From an uncultured Granulicella sp. (lineage in GTDB: Bacteria; Acidobacteriota; Terriglobia; Terriglobales; Acidobacteriaceae), in NCBI GenBank assembly GCA_903932155.1, contig CAIZFH010000285.1, positions 1,351-65,350 on the forward strand: a stretch of 64,000 bases of DNA. The letters are read 5' to 3'. This document shows positions 18,299-32,517 of this stretch, in pieces. Position 1 is the first letter of the stretch. Every line of letters starts with the position of its first letter. Below the pieces are notes generated by a model, which was not told the DNA's origin, searched no databases, and saw only the letters and a list, made by a program, of their open reading frames with translations. The position numbers and the translations under genes are program-made.

Positions 18299-18327
18299 TT
18301 GACACTTGACCGCCTCAAAACTAGAGT
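18299..18327 (+). promoter_or_regulatory. sigma70-like promoter TTGACA-N17-TAGAGT for the nuo operon
   Basis: Perfect -35 at 18299-18304, a 17-nt spacer, and -10 TAGAGT at 18322-18327, only 12 nt before the nuoA ATG. Confidence 0.45.
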
Positions 18328-18339
18328 CAAAGATGGCGC

Positions 18340-18747
18340 ATGACGAGCTACCCATACATTTGGAACTACCTACCGCTGGCGCTTCATATCGCGGGCGCGC
18401 TGGGCATTGCCGGCGGCATGGTAGCGGCTTCGTACCTCATCGGCAGGCACAGAAACTATCGAACAAAACTTGACCCCTATGAGTGCGGCATGGATCCGGT
18501 GGGCGACTCGCGAGGCCGCTTCTCCGTGCGTTTCTACATGGTTGCGATGCTGTTTATCCTGTTCGACGTGGAGGCTGTGTTCATGCTTCCATGGGCTGTT
18601 ATATTCCGCCGTCTGCCTGGCATTACGGGATCGGCGATGTTCGGCTTCTGGGAGATGCTGGTGTACCTCGGCTTCGTTGCCGTTGGCCTGTTTTATGTGT
18701 GGAAGAAGGGCATTCTGAACTGGTCGTACGACCGGGGAGACCAATAA
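18340..18747 (+). CDS. nuoA: NADH-quinone oxidoreductase subunit A
   Basis: YECGMDPVGDSRGRFSVRFYMVAMLFILFDVE motif; 135 aa. Confidence 0.92.
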   Translation: MTSYPYIWNYLPLALHIAGALGIAGGMVAASYLIGRHRNYRTKLDPYECGMDPVGDSRGRFSVRFYMVAMLFILFDVEAVFMLPWAVIFRRLPGITGSAMFGFWEMLVYLGFVAVGLFYVWKKGILNWSYDRGDQ

Positions 18748-19239
18748 ATGTACGACCCTGCGAGCGCGATCAACGGCAAGACTGACGTCTTCTCGGCTAT
18801 GGCAGAGAACCCCGCCGTGGTAGCGCTGACTGAGCTAGCCGCGGATGCGAAGTTCGACCGCAATGAGCTGACGATAACGGTGGCGCGAGAGAACATAGTC
18901 GCCGCGTGCGAGGCGGTGAAGGCCGCCGGATACAACTTTTTCGAGGACGTGACGGCAGTGGACTGGTATCCGCAGGAGCCGCGCTTCCAGCTTTCGTATC
19001 ACATCGTGTCGCACAGCCTGAAGCAGCGGGTTCGGCTGCGCGTCCTACTGGACTCCAGCGATGCGAGCATTCCATCCATCACTTCGGCATGGCCCTCGGC
19101 AAATTTTTACGAACGCGAGGTCTTCGACCTCTTCGGGATCGATTTTCCAGGCCATCCGCGCCTTACCCGCATTATGATGCCCGAGAACTGGCAAGGCCAT
19201 CCGCTGCGCAAAGACTACCCGGTGGAAGGTTACAGATAA
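18748..19239 (+). CDS. nuoC: NADH-quinone oxidoreductase subunit C
   Basis: ANFYEREVFDLFGIDFPGHP..LRKDYP motif. ATG directly abuts the nuoA stop (TAAATG). Confidence 0.92.
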   Translation: MYDPASAINGKTDVFSAMAENPAVVALTELAADAKFDRNELTITVARENIVAACEAVKAAGYNFFEDVTAVDWYPQEPRFQLSYHIVSHSLKQRVRLRVLLDSSDASIPSITSAWPSANFYEREVFDLFGIDFPGHPRLTRIMMPENWQGHPLRKDYPVEGYR

Positions 19240-19243
19240 GACA

Positions 19244-19278
19244 GGTACGAGGCACAAGGTTCAAGGTAAAGGCAAAGA
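19244..19278 (+). repeat. heptad microsatellite GGTACGA GGCACAA GGTTCAA GGTAAAG GCAAAGA
   Basis: Fills the nuoC-nuoD spacer and ends 4 nt before the nuoD ATG. Confidence 0.75.
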
Positions 19279-19282
19279 CGCT

Positions 19283-20542
19283 ATGGCACCGGTTGCAGCA
19301 CCCGACAGAATCACCCCCGGAGTGGAAGACGTCGTAGCCGACGCGAAGCTGCACGCCGGAATGGGCTCGGGCGAGCACTCCATGGTGCTTAACATGGGCC
19401 CGCAGCATCCGTCGACCCACGGCGTGCTGCGCCTGGTAATTGAACTGGATGGCGAGATTGTGGTGGCGCTTGCCCCGGACATCGGCTACCTGCACACTGG
19501 CATCGAGAAGACATGTGAGGCGAAGTTCTACCAGCAGGTGGTGCCGCTGACCGACCGCATCGACTATCTGTCTCCGATGACCAACAACCTGGCTTACTGC
19601 CTGGCGGTGGAGAAGCTGTTGGACCTGGAGATTCCGGAACGCGCGCAGCTCATCCGCGTGCTGCTGAACGAGATCACGCGCATCCAGTCGCACCTGGTGT
19701 GGCTGGGTACGCATGCCATGGACATCGGCGCGCTGACCATGTTTCTATACTGCTGGCGCGAGCGCGAGGCCACGCTGCGCATCTTCGAGGCGGTCAGCGG
19801 ACAGCGCATGATGACCAGCTACTTCCGCATTGGAGGCCTTGCGCTGGAACCGCCGATGGGATTCTATGAGTCGATCCAGACGTTCCTGGACAGCATGCCC
19901 GCTCACATCGACCAGTACGAAAATCTACTTACCGGCAATCCAATATGGATGGGACGGCTGAAGGGCGTGGGAACGCTCTCAGCGGCGGACGCGATTGCAC
20001 TGGGAGTGACCGGACCTCCGCTGCGCGCCAGTGGCGTGGACTGGGACCTGCGCCGCGATATGCCCTACTCCGGTTACGAAAGGTTCAAGTTTGATGTGCC
20101 AGTGAGCAACGTCGGCGATGTGTGGGCACGCTACACCGTGCGCATGTTGGAGATGCGCGAGAGTGTAAAGATTTGCCTGCAGGCGATGGGCATGCTGAAG
20201 GGAATGACCGGGCCGATTGTGGCCGACGCGCCCAAGATCGTGCTGCCCAACCGCGAGAAGATGAAGACCGAGATGGAGGCTCTGATCCATCACTTCAAAA
20301 TTGTGACCGAGGGATTCGGAGTCCCCGCCGGCGAAGTTTATCAGGCGGTGGAGAGCCCGCGCGGCGAGATGGGATACTACGTCGTCTCGGATGGGACGGC
20401 CAAGCCATATCGCGTGCACATGCGGAATCCGAGCTTTGCAACGTTGCAGGCCCTGGAGACGATGTGCAAAGGACGGCTCATCGCGGATGTGGTCGCGGTG
20501 ATTGGAAGCATTGATATTGTGCTGGGGGAGATCGATCGCTAG
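19283..20542 (+). CDS. nuoD: NADH-quinone oxidoreductase subunit D
   Basis: NMGPQHPSTHGVLRL, YLHTGIEK, ESPRGEMGYYV motifs. Confidence 0.93.
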   Translation: MAPVAAPDRITPGVEDVVADAKLHAGMGSGEHSMVLNMGPQHPSTHGVLRLVIELDGEIVVALAPDIGYLHTGIEKTCEAKFYQQVVPLTDRIDYLSPMTNNLAYCLAVEKLLDLEIPERAQLIRVLLNEITRIQSHLVWLGTHAMDIGALTMFLYCWREREATLRIFEAVSGQRMMTSYFRIGGLALEPPMGFYESIQTFLDSMPAHIDQYENLLTGNPIWMGRLKGVGTLSAADAIALGVTGPPLRASGVDWDLRRDMPYSGYERFKFDVPVSNVGDVWARYTVRMLEMRESVKICLQAMGMLKGMTGPIVADAPKIVLPNREKMKTEMEALIHHFKIVTEGFGVPAGEVYQAVESPRGEMGYYVVSDGTAKPYRVHMRNPSFATLQALETMCKGRLIADVVAVIGSIDIVLGEIDR

Positions 20543-20550
20543 GAGGAGAC

Positions 20551-20736
20551 ATGTTAGGTCCATTGAGTACAGAGGACAGACGACTACAACACGTTGGAAA
20601 ATTGCCTAAGGAGACCAGGGACTATCTGAACTCCAAAAAGCCATCCACGGTACAAGTAATACTTTGGGGACTTTCAGTGTTCGGACTTTTTGGCTGCATC
20701 ATTGTGCAACTGATTCGGGAAATTTTCAGGTCTTGA
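20551..20736 (+). CDS. small single-TM protein inserted between nuoD and nuoE
   Basis: ATG preceded by AGGAGGAG, which overlaps the nuoD stop. C-terminal hydrophobic helix VQVILWGLSVFGLFGCIIVQLI. Low GC (~44%). Confidence 0.5.
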   Translation: MLGPLSTEDRRLQHVGKLPKETRDYLNSKKPSTVQVILWGLSVFGLFGCIIVQLIREIFRS

Positions 20737-20810
20737 TCAATACAGCAGTCCATTGCGAGCTTTTGATCTCGTGGACTTCCCTGCTCCGGTCGTATGCGGC
20801 GGCACACGGG

Positions 20811-21029
20811 ATGAGCAGAGCGCAGCAGGCGGTGATTGAAGTTGGTGTCGATGAGATTGTGGTGCGGTACGGAAGCAAATGGATTCGCTTCACGTACGGT
20901 GAGATGGAATCGAGCGACGGGAACAAATCTCCCTTCGCGCTGAACGAGGACGGAACGGTAACGCTGGACGGTAAGATGGAAGAGATGGACTTTGCAGCCG
21001 AACGGGTAACGCGGGAGTTGATGCAGTGA
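20811..21029 (+). CDS. small acidic hypothetical protein translationally coupled to nuoE
   Basis: 72-aa ORF from ATG 20811. Its stop overlaps the nuoE GTG (GTGA). The track ORF extends to 20664 but that part overlaps the preceding mini-gene. Confidence 0.4.
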   Translation: MSRAQQAVIEVGVDEIVVRYGSKWIRFTYGEMESSDGNKSPFALNEDGTVTLDGKMEEMDFAAERVTRELMQ

Positions 21030-21526
21030 GCACGGTGACCAAATCGATCTTTACACCGGAGTTGGCGGCCTACTTCGACAGGCTTGTGACGGTCTATCCG
21101 CTGAAGCGTTCGGCGCTGATCCCCATGCTGCTTTACTCGCAGGACGAAGTGGGCTACGTGTCGGAGGCTGTGATTCAGGAGATCGCAAAGCGGCTGGACC
21201 TGTTCGATTTGGATGTACGCTCGGTGCTGAGCTACTACTCCATGCTGCGGACGAAGCCCGCGGGCAAGTACAACGTGCAGGTGTGTACCAACATCAGCTG
21301 CATGTTGCGCGGTGGGTACGAGATTCTGGACCACTGTAAGCGGAGGCTGGGCATCGAGCATAAGCAGACCACTGCGGACGGGATGTTCTCGCTGGAGGAG
21401 GTGGAGTGCATCGGCGACTGCTGTTCCGCACCTGCCATGCAGGTGAACTACGAGTTTCACGACGAGTTGACGCCGCAGAAGGTGGACGAAATTCTAGATG
21501 AATACGCCGCGGAGGACAGGAAGTAA
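21026..21526 (+). CDS. nuoE: NADH-quinone oxidoreductase subunit E
   Basis: VCTNISCMLRGG and ECIGDCCSAPAM 2Fe-2S motifs. Confidence 0.92.
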   Translation: MSTVTKSIFTPELAAYFDRLVTVYPLKRSALIPMLLYSQDEVGYVSEAVIQEIAKRLDLFDLDVRSVLSYYSMLRTKPAGKYNVQVCTNISCMLRGGYEILDHCKRRLGIEHKQTTADGMFSLEEVECIGDCCSAPAMQVNYEFHDELTPQKVDEILDEYAAEDRK

Positions 21527-22860
21527 TGCCGCGACTTGTATCCCATCCAGATGAGGTCATCGTATTGAAGCGGCGCTTTGGCCAGGGCGCGGCGAAGATC
21601 GACCGGTACATTGCGCTGGACGGCTACGCGGCGGCGCAGAAGGCCATTGCGCAGGGCAAAGATGCCATGCCGGGATGGATCATCGACACGATGAAGGCAA
21701 GCGGGCTGCGCGGGCGCGGAGGCGCTGGATTTCCAACGGGAATGAAGTGGAGCTTTGTGCCGAAGACCTCTGCCAAGCCGAAGTATGTGCTGGTGAACGG
21801 CGACGAGAGTGAACCGGGAACCTGCAAGGACCATATGCTGTTCCGCGAAGACCCGCACGCGGTGATCGAGGGCACGATAATAGCGGGGCTGGCCATCGGC
21901 GCGAAGACAGGTTTTATCTATCTGCGCGGCGAGTATCGTACTCTGCTGAACATTATGGAGCATGCGGTTGCCGACGCTTACGCGCGCGGTTTCCTGGGCA
22001 AGAACATCTTTGGCTCCGGGCTGGGCTTCGACATTATTACGCAGACGGGCGCAGGCGCGTACGAGGTTGGCGAAGAGTCGGCGCTGATGGAGTCGCTGGA
22101 GGGCAAGCGCGGCGTGCCACGGATACGGCCGCCGTTTCCGGCGGTGGTCGGGCTATATGGCGGGCCGACGATCATCAATAACGCGGAGACCATCGCCAAT
22201 GTGCCGCACATCTTGCTAATGGGCGGAGAGGCCTACTGCCAGCTGGGCTCGGAACGCAATGGCGGGACGCGGCTGTTCAGCATCAGCGGCCATGTGGAGC
22301 GTCCCGGCGTGTACGAGCTGCCCATGGGCTACCCACTGCGCAAGGCGATCTACGAGGTTGCGGGTGGAATCCTTGGTGGCAAAGAGTTGAAGGCTGTAGT
22401 GCCCGGCGGGGCGTCCTGCCCGGTACTGCGCGCCGACGAGATCGACATTGGCCTCGACTTCGACCAGTTGGCCAAGTGCGGATCTATGCTGGGGTCGGGC
22501 GGAATTGTGGTACTCGATGAGACAGTGTCGATCGTTGAGTTCGCGCTGCGCACCATCAAGTTCTATCAGCACGAGAGCTGCGGATGGTGCATTCCCTGCC
22601 GCGAGGGCACTGACTGGATCAAGAAGACGCTGACCCGCGTGTACGAGGGCGGCGGCGCGAAGAAGGACATCGAGACCGTGCAATACGTCGCGGAAAACAT
22701 GATGGGACGGACGTTCTGCCCGTTTGGCGACGCGGCGGCGATGCCCACGCTGGGATTCGTAAAGAAATTTCGCAAAGAATTTGAAGACTATATCGAAGGT
22801 AAGAAGGCAGGCACGCCATTGATGACCGAGGAGCACATTTTGGTTGGTGCTGGACATTGA
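21526..22860 (+). CDS. nuoF: NADH-quinone oxidoreductase subunit F
   Basis: GLRGRGGAGFPTG FMN site, ESCGWCIPCREG 4Fe-4S motif, and a TAATG junction with nuoE. Confidence 0.93.
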   Translation: MPRLVSHPDEVIVLKRRFGQGAAKIDRYIALDGYAAAQKAIAQGKDAMPGWIIDTMKASGLRGRGGAGFPTGMKWSFVPKTSAKPKYVLVNGDESEPGTCKDHMLFREDPHAVIEGTIIAGLAIGAKTGFIYLRGEYRTLLNIMEHAVADAYARGFLGKNIFGSGLGFDIITQTGAGAYEVGEESALMESLEGKRGVPRIRPPFPAVVGLYGGPTIINNAETIANVPHILLMGGEAYCQLGSERNGGTRLFSISGHVERPGVYELPMGYPLRKAIYEVAGGILGGKELKAVVPGGASCPVLRADEIDIGLDFDQLAKCGSMLGSGGIVVLDETVSIVEFALRTIKFYQHESCGWCIPCREGTDWIKKTLTRVYEGGGAKKDIETVQYVAENMMGRTFCPFGDAAAMPTLGFVKKFRKEFEDYIEGKKAGTPLMTEEHILVGAGH

Positions 22861-22874
22861 GCAATCGCGGACTC

Positions 22875-22997
22875 ATGATCGTCATTCTTCTCGTGCTGGT
22901 CTTTGCAGTCTTTGTTCTATGCGTACTGGTCTGCTCCAGAATGCAACACCGAAGCGCCGATCAGCAGATTTTAATTCAGAGGTCTCACCAGAATTGA
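22875..22997 (+). CDS. candidate 40-aa hydrophobic mini-protein between nuoF and nuoG
   Basis: My own translation: MIVILLVLVFAVFVLCVLVCSRMQHRSADQQILIQRSHQN. Below the ORF-track cutoff, low GC, no clear SD. Confidence 0.3.
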   Translation: MIVILLVLVFAVFVLCVLVCSRMQHRSADQQILIQRSHQN

Positions 22998-23020
22998 ACG
23001 CGGCAGGAGCAGGGATTTAG

Positions 23021-25462
23021 ATGGCTGATGTAACCATTACCGTCGATGGCAAGAAGATCACCGCACCCGCGGGCACGCTGCTGATTGAGGTGTGCAAGAC
23101 CGCGGGCATCGAGATTCCTGCCTTCTGCTACTATCCCGGCCTTAGTCTGCAGGCGGCATGCCGCATGTGCGTGGTGCGCCAGGAGAAGGTGCCGAAGCTG
23201 CAGACCGCATGCACAACGCAGATTGCCGAGGGACAGGTCTTTTTCACCGACACGCCGGAGGTGGTGCAGGCGCGCAAGGCCACGCTACAACTTCTGCTGG
23301 GTAACCATCCCCTGGACTGCCCGGTGTGCGATGCGGGCGGCGAGTGCGAGCTGCAGGACATGACCTTCAAGTACGGCGCGGCGGACAGCTTCTATGCCGA
23401 GCCGAAGAACCATCGCGAGGAGCAGAAGTGGTCGCCTGTGGTGTACTTCGACCGGCCGCGCTGCATCCTGTGCTACCGCTGCGTGCGCGTGTGCGGCGAG
23501 GGGATGGATGTGTTCGCGCTGGCTGTGGAGAACCGCGGCTCGTCGTCCATCATTGTGCCGAACGTGCCGGCGCAGCTCGCGCCCGACAACCTGGCGCAAC
23601 TGGACTGCGAACAGTGTGGCATGTGCATTGACATATGCCCGGTAGGTGCTTTGACCAGCGGAACATATCGCTACAAGACACGACCGTGGGAGATGAACCA
23701 CGTTGCCACCGTTTGCACCCACTGCGGCGATGGATGCAAGACGACGCTCGGAGTGCGCTCTACCTCCGATGGATCGCAGATTGTGCGCGGCGACAACCGC
23801 GACAAGTCCGGCATCAACGGTGATTTTCTGTGCAACAAGGGACGCTACGCATTCGACTTCGCCAACAACAGCGAGCGCATCACCCAGCCGCTGGTGCGCC
23901 AGCCCAATGGCGAGCTGAAGCCTGTCAGTTGGGAGGAGGCGCTCACCTATGTGGGTACGAAGTTTGCTGAACTGCTGAACACGCACGGCGGCAGGAGCTT
24001 CGGCGTAATCGGCGGCAACCGCCTGACCAACGAAGAGGCGTACCTGCTGCAGAAGTTTGCGCGCTCCGTGCTACACACCAACAACATCGACCACCATCGC
24101 ACGGCAGACTATGCTGCCTTTGCACAATCCCTGGCCGGCACTGCGGGCCGTGGTGCGTCACTTCGCGATACGCTAATCGCGAAGGCCGTTCTGCTAGTGG
24201 GAGGCGATCCCACCAACCAAAATCCAGCCACTGCGTGGAACCTGCGCAGCAACGTTCGCCACAACGGTGCAAGGCTTTATATTGCGAATATTACGGAAAT
24301 TAAGTTGCGCCGCCAGGCCAGGGCCTTCCTGCATGTGGCGGAATATGGCTACGGCGCGCTGGCCGAGTACCTCGCGGGCGACGACTCTACGTCCAGTTCT
24401 GTGACACCCGATAGCGCAGCTCTGGCCAGCTTCCGCGATGCGCTCAGGAGTGAAGAGTCGCTGCTGATTCTTATCGGCAATGAACTGCGCGGCGCGGAGT
24501 TGAAGCGACTGATCGATTTTGGGTTGACGATTCCAGGTGCTAAGTTTGCCCTGCTGGCTGACTACGCCAATTCACGTGGTGCCGCCGACATGGGCCTGCT
24601 CCCCGACCTACTGCCCGGCTATACACACATTGGACCCATCGACACTGCGGACCCAGCCAGCCGGATTGCACTTGAGTACCACTCGCCCACCTCGCCCGGC
24701 CTCGACCTGTTGGAGATCTTCGACGCCGCCACCGTAGGCAATCTATCCGCGCTTTACGTGGCCGGTGCCAATCCTGTTGCACGCTACGACGTTGATCCGG
24801 CTACCCTCAAGAACACTTTTATTGTAGTGCAGGATATGTTCCTCACTGAGACGGCCGTGCTGGCTGACGTCGTGCTGCCCGCCGCAAACCTATATGAAAA
24901 ATCCGGATGCGTAAGCAACAGTTACGGGGACTTGCAGCAGGTAAAGAAAGCCGCAGACCGCGCTGGCGTGCGCAGCGACTTCGAGATGATCGTGCGCATC
25001 GCCGACAAGATGGGAGCGGATGTTCGCAAGCTGGTCCCGTTTGGTCCTGGCTCCAATTCCGAGGGGATCAGTGCCGACATGGGTCAAACGCGCGGTGCAG
25101 AGTCCGGCGAGGCTGATCGTCACGCCGTTTGGCTAACAGCCAACAACTTGGAGCCGCGCCTCAGTCCCTTCGATCCCAGCGCCATGCTGGACGAAATTCA
25201 GCGGCTTGTTCCGGGCTACAAGCTGCTGCGCCTGCAACTGCTCTCGGGCAACGACCAGCACTTGTCGCCCGCAGCTGTACCCATCCGCGATGACGCGGGC
25301 CTGGTGCAGATCAGCAACCGCCGCGACCTGGTGCTGCCGGCCAACGATACTCTGTTCACCTCCGGCTCGCTCACACGCTACTCCGCGAGCCTCAACGACC
25401 TGCAACAAAACCAGCTGCGGCAACCTATTATCCAGATTGACAACAAGACAGTAGTGGACTAG
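23021..25462 (+). CDS. nuoG: NADH-quinone oxidoreductase subunit G
   Basis: N-terminal 2Fe-2S ferredoxin fold (CYYPGLSLQAACRMC), HPLDCPVCDAGGECELQ, CEQCGMCIDICPVGAL, and a molybdopterin-like domain. Confidence 0.92.
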   Translation: MADVTITVDGKKITAPAGTLLIEVCKTAGIEIPAFCYYPGLSLQAACRMCVVRQEKVPKLQTACTTQIAEGQVFFTDTPEVVQARKATLQLLLGNHPLDCPVCDAGGECELQDMTFKYGAADSFYAEPKNHREEQKWSPVVYFDRPRCILCYRCVRVCGEGMDVFALAVENRGSSSIIVPNVPAQLAPDNLAQLDCEQCGMCIDICPVGALTSGTYRYKTRPWEMNHVATVCTHCGDGCKTTLGVRSTSDGSQIVRGDNRDKSGINGDFLCNKGRYAFDFANNSERITQPLVRQPNGELKPVSWEEALTYVGTKFAELLNTHGGRSFGVIGGNRLTNEEAYLLQKFARSVLHTNNIDHHRTADYAAFAQSLAGTAGRGASLRDTLIAKAVLLVGGDPTNQNPATAWNLRSNVRHNGARLYIANITEIKLRRQARAFLHVAEYGYGALAEYLAGDDSTSSSVTPDSAALASFRDALRSEESLLILIGNELRGAELKRLIDFGLTIPGAKFALLADYANSRGAADMGLLPDLLPGYTHIGPIDTADPASRIALEYHSPTSPGLDLLEIFDAATVGNLSALYVAGANPVARYDVDPATLKNTFIVVQDMFLTETAVLADVVLPAANLYEKSGCVSNSYGDLQQVKKAADRAGVRSDFEMIVRIADKMGADVRKLVPFGPGSNSEGISADMGQTRGAESGEADRHAVWLTANNLEPRLSPFDPSAMLDEIQRLVPGYKLLRLQLLSGNDQHLSPAAVPIRDDAGLVQISNRRDLVLPANDTLFTSGSLTRYSASLNDLQQNQLRQPIIQIDNKTVVD

Positions 25463-25477
25463 AAACTGAGAGACCCC

Positions 25478-26539
25478 GTGAACCACCTGACCGATTTCGA
25501 AGTCTTCCTCATGCTGAGCGTGCTTAAGGTGGTGGTGGTGCTGGTGATCACGCTACTGGGCGTGGCATACACGGTGCTGTTGGAGCGCAAGTTACTGGCG
25601 CGCATGCAGAACCGCTGGGGTCCCAGCCGCGTCGGCCCCTTCGGCCTGTTGCAGCCGCTTGTGGACGGCGCCAAGAGCTTCCTGAAGGAAGATATGAACC
25701 CGCTGGCGGTGGAGCGGCCGCTGTTTATTCTGGCACCTATTATTGCTCTTGGTTGCGCGCTTATCTCCGTCTCCGTGGTTCCATTCGGCGCAGTTACCCG
25801 CGTGCGAGGCGTGGATCTATTCCAGATTGCCAATGTCAATATCGGCCTGTTGGTGATCCTTGGAGTAACGTCGATCGGTGTTTATGGCATCACGCTCTCC
25901 GGCTGGTCGTCAAACAATAAATACTCGCTTCTCGGCTCGCTTCGTTCCACTGCACAGGTGATCAGCTACGAGCTTGCGCTAGGCCTATCGCTGGTCGGCG
26001 TCGTGCTACGCGCGCAGTCACTCAACCTGCGGGTCATCGTGGACAGCCAGTCCGCCCACGGGGCGCTCTCCTGGAATATCTTCGGCGGCTTTCAGTTCGT
26101 TGCCTTCTTTATCTACCTGATGGCAGCCTTTGCCGAGACCAACCGCGCTCCCTTCGATCTGCCCGAGGCGGAGAATGAACTGGTAGCGGGCTATCACACC
26201 GAGTACAGCTCCATGAAGTTTGCCATGTTCTTCATGGCCGAGTACGCCAACATGATTACGGTAAGCTGCGTGGCTACACTTTTGTTCCTGGGCGGCTCAA
26301 CCAGTATCTTCGGACACATCTTCGACGGCATTCTGAATACACCCATTGCGAACGCGATTTTTCCGGTCTGCTGGTTCGTGGCCAAGGTCTTCGCATTTCT
26401 TGCTCTCTACATTTGGGTGCGGGCCACTCTGCCGCGCTTCCGCTACGACCAATTGATGAGTTTCGGCTGGAAATTCCTGCTGCCGCTCGCCATGGCCAAC
26501 ATCATCGTCACCAGCTTAGTTCTCGCGGTGCGGGGCTAA
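25478..26539 (+). CDS. nuoH: NADH-quinone oxidoreductase subunit H
   Basis: LERKLLARMQNRWGPSRVGPFGLLQPLVDG and AETNRAPFDLPEAE..LVAGYHTEYS motifs. Confidence 0.93.
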   Translation: MNHLTDFEVFLMLSVLKVVVVLVITLLGVAYTVLLERKLLARMQNRWGPSRVGPFGLLQPLVDGAKSFLKEDMNPLAVERPLFILAPIIALGCALISVSVVPFGAVTRVRGVDLFQIANVNIGLLVILGVTSIGVYGITLSGWSSNNKYSLLGSLRSTAQVISYELALGLSLVGVVLRAQSLNLRVIVDSQSAHGALSWNIFGGFQFVAFFIYLMAAFAETNRAPFDLPEAENELVAGYHTEYSSMKFAMFFMAEYANMITVSCVATLLFLGGSTSIFGHIFDGILNTPIANAIFPVCWFVAKVFAFLALYIWVRATLPRFRYDQLMSFGWKFLLPLAMANIIVTSLVLAVRG

Positions 26540-26631
26540 CTCCGCTCTGCTTTACAATCAGAGTAACCACAACGATTTATTGACTGATTTAGACAATATT
26601 CCATGTCTTTCAGAAGGATTGACGGAAGCTC

Positions 26632-27138
26632 ATGCAACTGGCTCTCTTCATCGTGTTTGGCGCGCTGGCCCTGGGCGGGGCACTGAACCTGCTGCTACAG
26701 CGCCATCCCATATACAGCGCACTATCTCTGGTGGTGGTGATGATGTCGCTGGCTGTGCTGTACTGGTCGCTGGGCGCGGAGTTTCTGGCAGCCGCACAGG
26801 TCATCGTCTACTCGGGCGCCATCATGGTGCTGTTTGTCTTCGTCATTATGCTGCTGAACGCTGGCAAAGAGGAGCAAACGCAAGGCAGCCGCGCCGCGTA
26901 CTCGGTTGGGTTCCCAGGTGCCGCAGCCATCTTCTGCCTGCTCAGTTTTGTTTTTCTGTCGGAGCGCGGGTCGCTACAAAGCACCAACATCGGCGGCGAC
27001 CTAAGCAGTGCAGTGGATAACATTGCCGTACTGAGTGCAATGCTGTTTACCCGGCAATTGCTGCCCTTTGAGGTAACGTCCGTCCTGATCCTGGTGGCAA
27101 TTCTGGGCGCGGTTGTATTGGCGCGGAGGGAGCAATAG
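26632..27138 (+). CDS. nuoJ: NADH-quinone oxidoreductase subunit J
   Basis: 168-aa polytopic protein with [22 protein letters not shown], in the canonical position before nuoK. Confidence 0.88.
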
Positions 27139-27139
27139 C

Positions 27140-27442
27140 ATGGTACCCACCGCCTATTACCTCGTCCTCGCAGCGATGCTCTTCTCCATCGGAATTGCCG
27201 CTTTCCTGATCAAACGCAATGTGATTACGATCTTTATTTCCATCGAACTGATGCTCAACGCCGTCAACCTGACCTTTGTCGCCTTTGCCCACATGTGGCA
27301 CCAGGTGAGCGGACAGATATTCGTCTTCTTCGTGATGGTGGTGGCCGCCGCCGAGGCCGCAGTCGGACTTGCCATTATCCTTTCCATCTTCCGTACCCGC
27401 CAGACACTTAACGTGGACGAGATCGACTTGATGAAATCATGA
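27140..27442 (+). CDS. nuoK: NADH-quinone oxidoreductase subunit K
   Basis: Start at ATG 27140, just after the nuoJ stop. [11 protein letters not shown] and [11 protein letters not shown] motifs. Confidence 0.9.
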
Positions 27443-29427
27443 ACTCCATGCCCGCGAGTTATATCTGGTTCATTCCGCTGCTGCCCTTCGCCGGCTTCCT
27501 GATTAACGGAACGCTGGGGCGAAGGCTTCCGCGTGTGGTTGTCAGCTCTGTGGCGTTGTTCTTCACAGCTGTGCCGGCTGCCCTCGTCGCGTGGCTGTGG
27601 GCAACGATGTGCACTGCGAGCGCGCCGAGTTCCGTGGATTCCGTAATTCGCCCCTATGGATATGACTGGATCAACATCACAGGCCTGCATGTCGACTTCG
27701 CCTTCACGGTCGATCACCTGACGTTGATCATGCTTGCTGTGGTTACCGGAGTCGGATTTCTCATCCACATCTACTCGGTTGGATACATGGCGCACGAGGA
27801 GGGATATTGGCGTTTCTTCGCGTACCTTAATCTCTTTATGTTCTTCATGTCCGTGCTGGTGCTTGCGGCAAATTTCCTGCTGCTCTTTGTCGGCTGGGAG
27901 GGCGTGGGTCTCTGCTCGTATCTTCTGATCGGCTTCTACTTCAAGAAGACCTCCGCTGCAGTCGCGGGGAAAAAGGCCTTTATCGTCAATCGCGTCGGCG
28001 ACTTCGGATTTCTGCTGGCGATGTTTCTGCTGATCGTTCACTTTGGCAGCCTTAGTTTCAAGGAAGTGTTTGCCACCCTGGCTCAGAATCCGGAGTGGCA
28101 GCAACAGGGCGCACACTTCCTGCCCGCAATCGCACTGCTGTTGCTGCTGGGCGCGGCAGGCAAATCCGCACAGATTCCGCTGTACATTTGGTTGCCCGAC
28201 GCGATGGAAGGCCCGACACCTGTCTCCGCACTGATCCACGCGGCCACGATGGTGACGGCCGGAGTTTACATGGTGGCGCGTTGCCATCCGCTTTTCGACA
28301 GTTCGCCGCTGGCGCTCACGGTGGTAGCGGTTATCGGTGCGGCTACTGCGATCGTTGCGGCCTCGATCGGCATGGTGCAACACGACATCAAACGTGTGTT
28401 GGCCTACTCCACCATCTCACAGCTTGGCTACATGTTTCTGGCCTGCGGAATGGGGGCCTACGCCGCGGGAATCTTCCACCTACTGACACACGCCTTCTTC
28501 AAGGCGCTGCTGTTCCTGGCGGCTGGATCGGTGATTCACGCGCTCTCCGGTGAGCAGGACATGCGCAACATGGGCGGTCTCTGGCGCAAGATTCCGGTCA
28601 CCTTCTGGACGATGACCGCGGGCGTCTTCGCGATAGCAGGCATTCCGCCGTTTGCGGGTTTTTTCTCCAAGGACGAGATTCTCTACCGCACGTTTACCAG
28701 CAGCAATCCGCTGCATATTGTTCTGTGGCTGGTTGGCCTGCTGACAGCGGGTTTGACTTCGTTCTACATGTACCGTCTCTGGTTCAAGACTTTCTTTGGT
28801 GAGCAGCGCACTAAGCAGAGTGGAGATGGTTACCCCCACAGCGTTCATGAGTCCTCGTGGATTATGCTGCTTCCGCTGGTAATTCTTGCGGTTCTATCGG
28901 TGATTGGTGGTTGGATTGGCATTCCCGCTGCACTGGGTGGAAACAACGGAATCGAGCACTTTCTGGATCCTGTCTTCGCCAACAGTGCGGCCAACGAAGC
29001 TGTAACTGCAAGCGGTCATGGCCTCGAACTGGTGCTTGCGCTCATCTCCGTTCTGGTTGCAGTGGCCGGTTTCTACTTCGCATACCTCTTCTACTACGAG
29101 AAACCCGGTACGGCTTCCGCACTTGCGCAGCACAACCCAGCCACATACAAGCTGGTGAAGAACAAGTACATGGTTGATGAGTTATACAGTGCATTTCTTA
29201 TTACTCCGCTGCTGATGTTTACACGGGGCGTACTGGAGTTGATGGTCGATCAAGGACTAGTGAATGGTTCGGGCGCAGTAGCGGGCGCAACTACACGTGG
29301 GCTTGCCTGGATCACACGCAAGCAGATTTCTGGCAACATCCGCTCCTACGCCGGATGGCTGGCCATTGGCGCAGCCGCAGTAATTACCGCAATGGTCTTT
29401 GGCGATGCACTGAAGGGACTTCTATGA
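27439..29427 (+). CDS. nuoL: NADH-quinone oxidoreductase subunit L
   Basis: ATGA overlap with nuo[15 protein letters not shown] and [32 protein letters not shown] motifs. Confidence 0.93.
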
Positions 29428-29434
29428 GGACACG

Positions 29435-30994
29435 ATGAATATCGACCCCATCATTCTGACCCTCATTGTCTTCTTCCCGCTGGCAGGCGCGCTGTTGCTG
29501 GCCCTGCTGCCCGACCGCGGCAGGACTATGCAGTGGGCCGCGTTGGCAGTCACACTGGTCACCTTGGGGCTCACGCTGCATCTGCCGTTCCACTACTCAT
29601 ACGCGAGTCCTGCGGGCAGCTTTCAGTTTGAGCAGAATGTGCCGTGGATTTCAGCGCCCGCCATCCGCTACCATCTCGGCGTCGATGGCCTCTCGATGTG
29701 GCTGATGGTTCTTACCGGACTGCTGGCACCGCTCGGCGTACTGATCTCGTGGCGAGCCGTCGACAGCCGCAAGAAGCTTTTTTATGTCCTCTTTCTGCTG
29801 CAGCAGGTCGCGATGATGGGCATCTTCGCCTCGCTGGACATGTTCCTCTACTACGCGTTCTGGGAGATGTCGCTGGTTCCGATGACGTTGTTGATCGCCA
29901 CGTTTGGTCGCAGTGAATACCGGCGCCGCGCCGCCATTAAATACTTTCTCTATGCCTTTATTCCCTCGGCGTTGCTGCTTGTCGCTATGCTGTGGCTGTA
30001 CGCGCAGACCGGGACTTTCGACCTGCCGAAGCTGGCTGCACTGGCCGCCGGAAACGCGATCTCGCCTAACACCACAGCACTTTGGCTCGCATCACTCGGA
30101 TTTCTTGTTGCCTTCTCTGTCAAGGTGCCTGTCTTTCCGCTGCATGGATGGCTGGTGGACGCAATCGCCGAGGCGCCGACCGCAGCCGTGATGGTGCTCG
30201 CTGGCAAGACCGCACTCTACTCCATGATGCGTTTTTCGCTTGCCATCTTCCCCGAGCAGTCCCACCGCGTCGCACCGCTGATGATTGCGCTGGCGGCCAT
30301 CGGCATTGTGTACGGGGGGTTGCTGGCATTAGTGCAGCACGATCTGAAGAAGCTGGCCGCCTACTCCACGCTGGGTCAGCTCAGTTTCATTGTTCTCGGC
30401 ATCTTTAGCTTTACCGTTGCGGGACTGGATGGCGGCATCTACCAGATCCTCAACGAGAGCCTTGCCGGAGCTGCGTTCTTTATGCTACTTGGCCTGCTAT
30501 ACGAACGCTATGGCAGCTACGACATGCGCCAGTATGGCGGGCTGGCGCAGAAATTGCCCTGGGTGGTCACGATGTTCGTGCTGGTTTCGCTGTCCATTAT
30601 CGGCTTGCCCATGCTGAACAGCTTTGTTGGAGAGTTCCTAATCCTCTCCGGCTCCATGCAGTCCGGCTTTGCACACCATCATCTGTGGACCGCTGTAGCG
30701 GCCACTGGGGTCATTTTGAGCGCAGCTTACATGCTGCGGATGATTCAGCGCGTCTTCTACTGCGAGTTGGGCACTAAGTCACAGGCGGTGACGGCTTGGG
30801 ACCTGGACGCGCGTGAGCACCTGGCGCTGTGGCCCATGGTTGCCCTGTTCCTGACGATGGGCGTCGCGTCGCCGCTGTGGATGCGCGCCATCGACAGCTT
30901 TGGCGCTGCGGCAGCCAGTCGTCTTGCGTCCGTGCAATGTACGGCACCCACTGAAACTCCATCGCTTCCAACCACCTCTGGAGGCGTACACTGA
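29435..30994 (+). CDS. nuoM: NADH-quinone oxidoreductase subunit M
   Basis: Antiporter-like subunit with [12 protein letters not shown] and [21 protein letters not shown]. Confidence 0.92.
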
Positions 30995-32517
30995 TGCCCC
31001 TTTCCGCCTCCTTGACTGCGCTGCTGCCCGAATATGTGCTCACCCTGACCGGTGTCCTCATCATGCTGATTGAGGCTGTGTTGAAGCCTGGAACCAGCCG
31101 CAAGCCGCTTGGCTGGCTGGCCATCGCAGGCACGACGGTTACCGGCATCCTTAGCTTCTATCAGCTTCATCTGGGCGTTCTCACCGCCTTCAGCGGCAGT
31201 ATTCAGGTGGACGCCTTCAGCATCTTCTTCCATCTTCTGATCGGCTCGGTGGTGGTGGCCACACTGCTTGGCTCGCTGGATTATTTTGAAAGCAACGCTG
31301 GCGAATACTATGCGCTGGTGCTGTTCGGCGCGGTGGGCATGATGCTGATGACCTGCTCGGTGGAGCTGCTGATGGTCTTCGTCGGACTGGAGATATCCTC
31401 GATCTCGACCTATATTCTGGCTGGCTTCCGCAAAGGCGAAGGCACGGCTGTGGAGTCGTCGATCAAATACTTCCTTCTCGGTTCGTTTGCCACTGCGTTC
31501 TTTCTGTATGGCATTGCGCTGGCTTATGGAGCGACGGGGTCCACCAGCATTGCCGGCATCTCCGCCGGACTTGGTTCGAGCGCGACACCACGCATGGCCT
31601 TCCTGGCACTTGCGATGATGCTAATCGGACTCGGCTTCAAGGTATCCGCAGCACCCTTCCATCTATGGACGCCGGACGTATACCAGGGAGCGCCCGCGCC
31701 GGTGGTAGGGCTGATGTCTACCGCGCCCAAGGCCGCTGCGTTCGCGGTGTTGCTGCGCGTCACGTTCTGTGGTTTTCCACCGCTGATGCAACACCGGTGG
31801 TCGATGCTGTTATGGGGCCTGGCCGCGCTCTCCATGACCATTGGCAACCTGGGAGCGCTGAAGCAGACAAACGTGAAGCGCATGCTTGCCTACTCCAGCA
31901 TTGCCCACGCGGGATACCTGCTGGTGGCCTTCAGCGCGCTTGCTCCGGCGGGAATAGCCGCAGCGTGCTTCTACGCCCTTTCCTACGCCGCGATGAACGT
32001 TGGTGCCTTCGCCGTGGTGACCCAGGCCGGCGGGTACAAAGAGACACTTCGCAGCTTCGAAGATTATCGGGGCCTTGCAATACGCCGTCCTGTGCTGGGC
32101 TTCCTGCTGGCGTTCTTGCTGCTCTCGCTGGTCGGGATACCGTTTACCGGCGGATTCTTCGGCAAGTTTTACGTCTTCAGCGCAGCGATCCAGGCCGGCC
32201 ATGTCTGGCTTGCCATCATCGGCCTGATCAATAGCGGAGTGGCTTGCTATTACTACCTGAGACTACTGAGCTCGGTGTACACCAAACCGGTAGAGTCTGC
32301 GTCAGTGGCAACTTTCGACCCAACTCCTGTAGTCAGCGTGCCCGCTGGCATAGGCCTGGCACTGGCCGCGGCCGCCACGCTGATGCTGGGTATCATGCCG
32401 GGCCACGTCCTCCATCTGGCCAATTACGCCAGCTCGAGCCTGCGTATAACCTCTGCACAGGTCCCACCAAGCGCGCCATTTACAAGCGTAACGCCACTTA
32501 CAAACCAGCCTAAATAG
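30994..32517 (+). CDS. nuoN: NADH-quinone oxidoreductase subunit N
   Basis: TGATG junction with nuo[21 protein letters not shown] motif. Confidence 0.92.

Follow-up and report, generated by a model that had tools for sequence, protein, structure and literature searches.

An uncultured Granulicella carries a complex I operon without nuoB and nuoI; the operon and two solo genes very probably encode a normal 14-subunit enzyme together

The DNA analyzed here (the window, 64,000 nucleotides (nt) in full length) comes from an uncultured Granulicella sp. and corresponds to positions 1351-65350 of contig C285 of assembly GCA_903932155.1, a metagenome-assembled genome (MAG) of 3.88 Mb in 319 contigs that is 97.7% complete with 3.56% estimated contamination. 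Related loci place it in the family Acidobacteriaceae, class Terriglobia. Between 18340 and 32517 the window contains, on the plus strand, an operon for respiratory complex I (nuo genes) from which nuoB and nuoI are missing. Very probably, a normal 14-subunit NADH-oxidizing complex I (NDH-1) is encoded jointly by this operon and by two genes standing alone elsewhere in the genome, a solo nuoB and a solo nuoI, which together make up a split gene set. The reading is based on the genes present, their intact motifs, the conserved layout, purifying selection, phylogenetic placement and the 1:1 copy numbers of complete genomes. The split layout itself is real, ordinary and already on record (Hausmann et al. 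2018).

Twelve nuo genes were identified by Pfam and NCBIfam scans of the open reading frames (ORFs) of the window (Table 1). All twelve are full-length matches to their Pfam families and passed the NCBIfam cut-off wherever it was tested. With two non-canonical ORFs, orfX1 and orfX2, they follow each other in the order nuoA-C-D-orfX1-orfX2-E-F-G-H-J-K-L-M-N, so that the gene list and order given in the first-pass annotation, which had been made from the sequence alone, proved right. At the junction of nuoA and nuoC (18745-18750) the sequence reads TAAATG: the TAA stop codon of nuoA (18745-18747) directly abuts the ATG of nuoC (18748-18750), leaving no room for nuoB. The spacer between nuoH and nuoJ (26540-26631) is 92 nt long and does not contain nuoI. 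A six-frame search of the whole assembly yielded no NuoB (Oxidored_q6) match on C285, and the sole match to the NuoI model on this contig was a weak one (21 bits) inside the ferredoxin domain of nuoG. Remnant or cryptic copies of nuoB or nuoI were sought inside the operon and were not found. These observations agree with what had been noted before on both junctions, and the six-frame and family scans also confirmed that no ORF of the operon carries the iron-sulfur (Fe-S) motifs of NuoB or NuoI. The window thus does not hold a canonical single nuoA-N operon with nuoB between nuoA and nuoC and nuoI between nuoH and nuoJ. The NADH-oxidizing N-module is present in the operon, with NuoE, NuoF containing the flavin mononucleotide (FMN) and NADH domains, and NuoG. 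For nuoK, the longest ORF begins with a TTG at 27113, which makes for a 26-nt overlap with nuoJ; more likely, translation starts from the ATG located at 27140, 1 nt past the nuoJ stop codon, to give a protein of 100 amino acids (aa).

Table 1. Positions of the nuo genes and associated features (window positions, or contig and position for features outside the window)
Feature	Position	Strand	Length	Matches and remarks
sigma-70-like promoter match TTGACA-17-TAGAGT	18299-18327	+		consensus scan, 10/12 matches
nuoA	18340-18747	+	135 aa	PF00507, E 5.9e-37
nuoC	18748-19239	+	163 aa	PF00329, E 8.7e-44; TIGR01961 136.5 bits (cut-off 122.45)
nuoD	19283-20542	+	419 aa	PF00346, E 6.7e-118; TIGR01962 578 bits (cut-off 459)
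orfX1	20551-20736	+	61 aa	one hydrophobic stretch; non-canonical subunit
orfX2	20733-21029	+	~99 aa	longest ORF from 20664, likely TTG start 20733
nuoE	21026-21526	+	166 aa	PF01257, E 3.8e-51
nuoF	21526-22860	+	444 aa	PF01512, PF10589, SLBB domains
nuoG	23021-25462	+	813 aa	Fer2_4, NADH-G_4Fe-4S_3, Fer4_Nqo3, Molybdopterin domains
nuoH	25478-26539	+	353 aa	PF00146, E 1.3e-120
nuoJ	26632-27138	+	168 aa	PF00499, E 1.6e-37
nuoK	27113/27140-27442	+		PF00420, E 3.5e-29
nuoL	27439-29427	+	662 aa	PF00361, PF00662, PF01010
nuoM	29435-30994	+	519 aa	PF00361, E 1.2e-58
nuoN	30994-32517	+	507 aa	PF00361, E 3.5e-71
solo nuoB	C214:1797-2417	minus	206 aa	
solo nuoI	C48:22779-23282		167 aa	length from ATG
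second solo nuoI	C204:76-564	minus		on 2.2-kb contig
second complex I-like cluster	C265:423-7865	minus		A-B-C-D-I-H-J-K-L
M-M-N genes	C79:2254-6698	minus		
third cluster	C16:6824-14126	minus		reaches contig end

The two missing subunits are encoded at other loci of the same assembly, in which the six-frame search detected three NuoB-family and four NuoI-like genes. The product of the solo nuoB on C214 scored 257.8 bits with NF005012 (cut-off 116) and 239.6 bits with TIGR01957 (cut-off 142.7). Its whole core aligns to Thermus thermophilus Nqo6 (E 8e-69), and it keeps the N2 ligand motifs GLACCAIEMM, SMGACA and VPGCPP with all four cysteine ligands (CCxxE...C...CP). The solo NuoI scored 170.4 bits with NF004537 (cut-off 163) and 125.4 bits with TIGR01971 (cut-off 113.05), aligns to T. 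thermophilus Nqo9 (E 4e-41) and has both CxxCxxCxxxCP motifs (clusters N6a and N6b) intact, CVACYLCAAACP and CIFCGYCVEACP. All 14 core subunits, NuoA to NuoN, are therefore encoded in the genome, 12 of them in the window, NuoB on C214 and NuoI on C48 and C204. The first-pass annotation had argued that NuoB and NuoI must come from another locus unless the operon encodes an atypical assembly, and had proposed a genome-wide search for their homologues and for a second nuo cluster; the search found both, and the canonical solo genes on C214 and C48 bear out the first of these two options. Identities between the solo proteins of this genome and those of relatives range from 72 to 88%, which is comparable to the values of the operon subunits. 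In relatives the neighborhood of nuoB is conserved (glnD, a PKD-domain outer-membrane protein gene, nuoB and a paralogous outer-membrane protein gene). No such conservation was found for nuoI, whose upstream UbiD-family gene and downstream AhpC/TSA gene do not occur within approximately 3.3 kb around the solo nuoI genes of relatives.

The two solo NuoI proteins share 79.5% amino acid identity, and the ratio of nonsynonymous to synonymous substitution rates (dN/dS) between their genes is 0.11. That the C204 gene represents the C48 locus of another strain was considered and rejected, because the match is confined to the coding region (81% nucleotide identity) and the flanking sequences show no relationship. 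This copy is a paralogue specific to the strain or else a contaminant of the bin, and it may be the latter, given that a single solo nuoI is present in each of the same-genus genomes G093 and G105.

To place the layout in a wider context, loci around NuoH relatives were compared, taking one genome per species (80 loci, 77 of them acidobacterial). The nuoA-nuoC gap did not exceed 126 nt in any of the 59 acidobacterial loci holding both genes, and the nuoH-nuoJ gap was 316 nt or shorter in 72 of 75 loci. In the three exceptions (1.4-1.6 kb) a hidden nuoI was considered and rejected, since the inserts contain other genes: an opposite-strand gene for a membrane protein of about 280 aa in L030 and L040, and an insertion sequence (IS) transposase in L051. 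Among the loci are closed chromosomes (Terriglobus roseus DSM 18391, NC_018014; Tunturiibacter gelidiferens, NZ_CP132939; OZ255826) as well as Edaphobacter and Granulicella MAG chromosomes, and the layout reaches deep into the Terriglobia, to Korobacteraceae, Sulfotelmatobacter and Acidiferrales. The synteny comparison proposed at the outset thus showed that the layout without nuoB and nuoI recurs in all Terriglobia loci examined. It is the class-wide, vertically inherited norm of the Terriglobia, already tabulated in the literature, and the initial premise that it is unusual was wrong.

Copy numbers in simpler genomes leave little choice of partners. On the chromosome of T. roseus DSM 18391, NuoD, NuoB and NuoI are each encoded exactly once and at unlinked positions, NuoD within the operon at 1.858 Mb, NuoB at 1.775 Mb and NuoI at 1.567 Mb. 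The same 1:1:1 pattern was seen in Granulicella G004 and G005. The same-genus genome G105 has one NuoH, one NuoB on a separate contig and one NuoI 270 kb off the operon. In these four genomes the solo genes are consequently the sole possible partners of the operon. In T. gelidiferens (NZ_CP132939) two genes, the orthologue of solo nuoB and another nuoB-like gene whose product is only 54% identical to the solo NuoB of the window genome, each match the family in two pieces lying in different frames (L102/L105 and L103/L104; at about 5.0946 and 5.5592 Mb), apparently as a result of a frameshift or sequencing error. An additional, complete nuo cluster that includes nuoB and nuoI lies at about 1.78 Mb of this chromosome.

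The origin of the solo genes was addressed with maximum-likelihood trees of NuoB and NuoI. All solo NuoBs of the Terriglobia form one clade (support 98/95). Its sister group (94/88) comprises the NuoB proteins encoded within the two nearest 14-gene operons to have retained nuoB, those of G070 and of a MAG labeled 'Clostridia'. The solo NuoIs also form a clade (99/89), which joins the solo NuoI of G070 (95/86) and lies within the NuoI group of the 14-gene operons. The clade supports and the glnD-nuoB synteny show that the solo nuoB and nuoI of the window genome are orthologous to the copies in other Terriglobia. The NuoB and NuoI of 11-subunit clusters, including the genome's own copies on C265, fall elsewhere in both trees.

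Outside the Terriglobia, where 20 loci were sampled non-exhaustively, the acidobacterial operons were mostly of the canonical A-B-C-D-(E-F-G)-H-I-J-K-L-M-N type. The operons closest in sequence to that of the window, those of the non-Terriglobia acidobacterium G070 and of the 'Clostridia' MAG (L089), have the order A-B-C-D-E-F-G-H-J-K-L-M-N, with nuoB kept and no nuoI, and the 14-type NuoI of G070 is encoded by a solo gene on a separate contig. This suggests that nuoI detached first: it would have left the operon lineage before the split between Terriglobia and G070, to be followed later, on the Terriglobia stem, by nuoB. A different situation was encountered in the non-Terriglobia genome G079 (loci L134, at G079:C1:841520-842369, and L125). 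Its single operon has the order nuoA-C-D-H-J-K-L-M-N, and nuoB and nuoI lie next to each other 2.6 Mb away. Both of these genes belong to 11-subunit clades, and the same two genes appear to have been detached independently in this case. The apparent detachments found so far are at least two, one in the 14-subunit lineage of the Terriglobia (nuoI, then nuoB) and one in the 11-subunit operon of G079, a member of another acidobacterial class.

In the proposed arrangement 12 subunits would be supplied by nuoACD-orfX1-orfX2-EFGHJKLMN, and NuoB (cluster N2) and NuoI (N6a/N6b) by the separate single genes. The solo proteins would join the operon-encoded subunits in trans and thereby complete the Fe-S chain from NADH to quinone. 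In comparison with a same-genus genome the following dN/dS values were obtained (gene in parentheses): 0.047 (nuoA), 0.072 (nuoC), 0.118 (nuoD), 0.083 (nuoF), 0.128 (nuoH), 0.112 (nuoJ), 0.079 (solo nuoB) and 0.080 (solo nuoI). The saturation of synonymous sites (dS >1) makes these values rough and counts against the proposed arrangement, yet all of them are well below 1. Further points on the same side of the balance are that the solo NuoB and NuoI are inferred to assemble with the subunits from the operon, that the promoter and leaderless calls described below are consensus pattern matches only, and that this genome, unlike T. roseus, has other NuoB and NuoI paralogues (in the C265 cluster, in the C16 cluster and as the C204 copy). 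Owing to these paralogues, the pairing in the window genome rests on phylogeny and on the comparison with simpler genomes.

The C265 cluster is a second complex I-like cluster; it is devoid of nuoEFG and includes its own nuoB and nuoI. It is probably continued by the M-M-N genes on C79. In this second cluster nuoI precedes nuoH and there are two nuoM genes, an order also seen in the same-genus genome G093 and resembling that of Chloroflexus Caur_1976-1987. The third cluster, on C16, is of a hydrogenase-4/Mrp-like kind; it consists of two NuoL/Mrp-like genes and of NuoH-, NuoC-, NuoD- (29% identity), NuoI- and NuoB-like genes, and probably encodes a group-4 hydrogenase or an Mbh/Mrp-type complex.

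Of the two small ORFs between nuoD and nuoE, orfX1 had no Pfam or NCBIfam match and no tblastn match in relatives at 1e-8. The other, orfX2, is tightly coupled to its neighbors: its likely TTG start overlaps the stop codon of orfX1 (TTGA) and its stop codon overlaps the GTG of nuoE (GTGA). By tblastn and alignment it was found at the same position in 29 related loci of Acidobacteriaceae and Terracidiphilus, with the conserved core ELWxSWASLLRSYAAAHGL...EEMDLAAE and a dN/dS of 0.155 relative to the same-genus genome. Pfam and NCBIfam scans gave no match for orfX2, the alignment showed no conserved cysteines, and neither small ORF contains an Fe-S motif. Lacking conserved cysteines, orfX2 cannot stand in for NuoB or NuoI; it is possibly a lineage-specific accessory or assembly factor.

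Candidate promoters were looked for by matches to consensus patterns. The sigma-70-like match upstream of nuoA ends 12 nt before the ATG, and as a promoter it would give an mRNA with a very short leader or none. Both solo nuoI copies of the genome (C48 and C204) and those of 7 of 10 relatives checked lack a Shine-Dalgarno sequence and are preceded by a TATACT box, which ends 6-9 nt from the ATG. A box of this kind, likewise 6-9 nt upstream, was also seen at several solo nuoB genes. The boxes upstream of solo nuoI and nuoB were examined on C48 upstream of 22779, on C204 upstream of 564, and at L107-L112, L137 and L139. Such short distances between the -10-like boxes and the start codons suggest that solo nuoB and solo nuoI each form a transcription unit of their own, probably a leaderless one, and mRNAs with little or no leader may be widespread in this group. 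In the nuoH-nuoJ spacer, the motif TTTACAATC (26551-26559) is kept in 12 of 13 orthologous Acidobacteriaceae spacers (alignment of spacers from 14 loci), and an AAGGA Shine-Dalgarno-like site precedes nuoJ. The motif is not enriched in the window (8 matches with at most 1 mismatch, 5.85 expected), and its interest therefore lies solely in its conservation in the orthologous spacers. This conservation and the insertions tolerated in the spacers of three relatives suggest that the spacer is a candidate internal promoter or regulatory site and that nuoJKLMN may have a promoter of their own.

Several other explanations of the missing genes were weighed. A fragmented MAG of 319 contigs with some estimated contamination (3.56%) could in principle contain chimeric or mis-joined junctions, or the operon might be degenerating. 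However, both junctions recur in dozens of assemblies made independently, including closed chromosomes such as NC_018014, NZ_CP132939 and OZ255826, and this excludes assembly error. As every operon gene is intact and full-length and the dN/dS values, rough as they are, lie at 0.03-0.13, we regard artefact or decay as practically negligible. Of the two outcomes that the first-pass annotation had named as fatal to its view, mis-joined contigs are thus contradicted by the independent assemblies, and an operon decaying in a genome devoid of nuoB and nuoI by the low dN/dS values and the presence of both genes. The alternative that it had itself offered, an atypical complex I-like assembly lacking N2 and N6a/b or having orfX1 and orfX2 in place of the missing subunits, could draw on the two non-canonical ORFs inside the operon, one of which, orfX2, is conserved in the family Acidobacteriaceae. 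Against it, orfX1 is unconserved and orfX2 has no conserved cysteines, so that binding of Fe-S clusters by either is excluded; both ORFs are missing from deeper Terriglobia (nuoD-nuoE gaps of -22 to about 65 nt), which show the same layout; NuoD passes its equivalog cut-off; and canonical NuoB and NuoI are present and conserved in each genome checked. An atypical assembly is hence highly improbable. Borrowing of NuoB and NuoI from a second, 11-subunit-type cluster, which had been suggested as an example, is a very unlikely explanation as well. Such a cluster with its own nuoB and nuoI does exist in this genome (C265 and C79), but its NuoB and NuoI share no more than 59% and 29% identity, respectively, with their solo counterparts and sit in well-supported clades apart from them in both trees, which indicates that it is not the supplier. 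Moreover, a second cluster is missing from T. roseus, Granulicella, G005, G105 and G054, which have one NuoD or NuoH and keep the solo nuoB and nuoI, and the solo genes are under strong purifying selection.

It is conceivable, if unlikely, that the position of nuoB and nuoI outside the operon is functional, the two proteins being separately regulated gate-keepers of Q-module assembly or exchangeable parts among complex I-like scaffolds. In G079 an operon of another type is without the same pair, whose adjacent genes and place in the 11-subunit clades point to independent relocation; several operons without nuoB and nuoI coexist with several solo copies of both in the MAGs of Hausmann et al. 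(2018); the solo genes have their own -10-like boxes; and the window genome has two solo nuoI copies. On the other hand, copy numbers are mostly 1:1:1, a pattern for which neutral break-up of the operon with subsequent vertical inheritance is an equally good explanation, and the C204 nuoI may be a contaminant. We likewise consider it unlikely that the loss from operons of exactly NuoB and NuoI, the two small connecting Fe-S subunits, is a recurrent selected trait and not neutral erosion. Under that view the independently promoted, probably leaderless solo genes would allow Q-module assembly to be gated, or NuoB and NuoI paralogues to be mixed between scaffolds of the complex I type.

The split gene set has a practical consequence for annotation. 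Those who read the operon only, and tools that score pathway completeness, will wrongly take complex I of Terriglobia to be incomplete or crippled; nuoB and nuoI should be sought genome-wide. Its evolutionary interest is modest and lies in the apparent loss of nuoI before nuoB and in the independent detachment of the same two genes from a different type of operon. The recurrence has a bearing on bacterial control of complex I assembly only if it is truly regulatory.

In Thermus all 14 subunits are encoded in a single nqo operon. The Nqo1-14 complex of T. thermophilus (PDB 2fug, 4hea) is the best match of the solo NuoB and NuoI among solved structures, and all Fe-S ligands are common to both. 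When the literature was searched for explicit treatment of acidobacterial operons without nuoB and nuoI, only Hausmann et al. 2018 (ISME J 12:1729, PMC6018796) was found; Eichorst et al. 2018 do not mention nuo. The Supplementary Results and Table S2b of the former report nuoACD(EFG)HJKLMN operons in the peatland Acidobacteria MAGs SbA1-7, with nuoB and nuoI on other scaffolds and with nuoEFG included in one operon per MAG. These operons and that of the window have the same gene order, lack the same two genes and belong to the same class, Terriglobia. That study tabulates the layout without discussing it, whereas here the solo genes of a different Acidobacteriaceae MAG were placed in trees and an order of detachment, nuoI before nuoB, was proposed. 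The window genome has all the features of the Terriglobia-type split set: nuoA adjacent to nuoC and nuoH to nuoJ, nuoEFG in the operon, and intact nuoB and nuoI elsewhere. Degli Esposti 2015 (Genome Biol Evol 8:126, PMC4758237) distinguished 'split' and 'NUO14minus' categories of nuo clusters. The set described here fits the idea of NUO14-type genes distributed over more than one locus; the main text of that work does not include Acidobacteria, and in our case exactly two single genes, nuoB and nuoI, are detached and not a sub-cluster. A partial parallel is provided by NUO-2 of Nitrospina gracilis (Luecker et al. 2013, PMC3578206), in which nuoB2 lies outside any operon and most other subunits are clustered. 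The unlinked nuoB is common to both systems. In contrast to the Terriglobia, however, nuoI of NUO-2 is located within nuoACHIJKLMN, nuoEGD make up another cluster and the complex shows altered patterns of cofactor binding, whereas the enzyme of the Terriglobia looks canonical.

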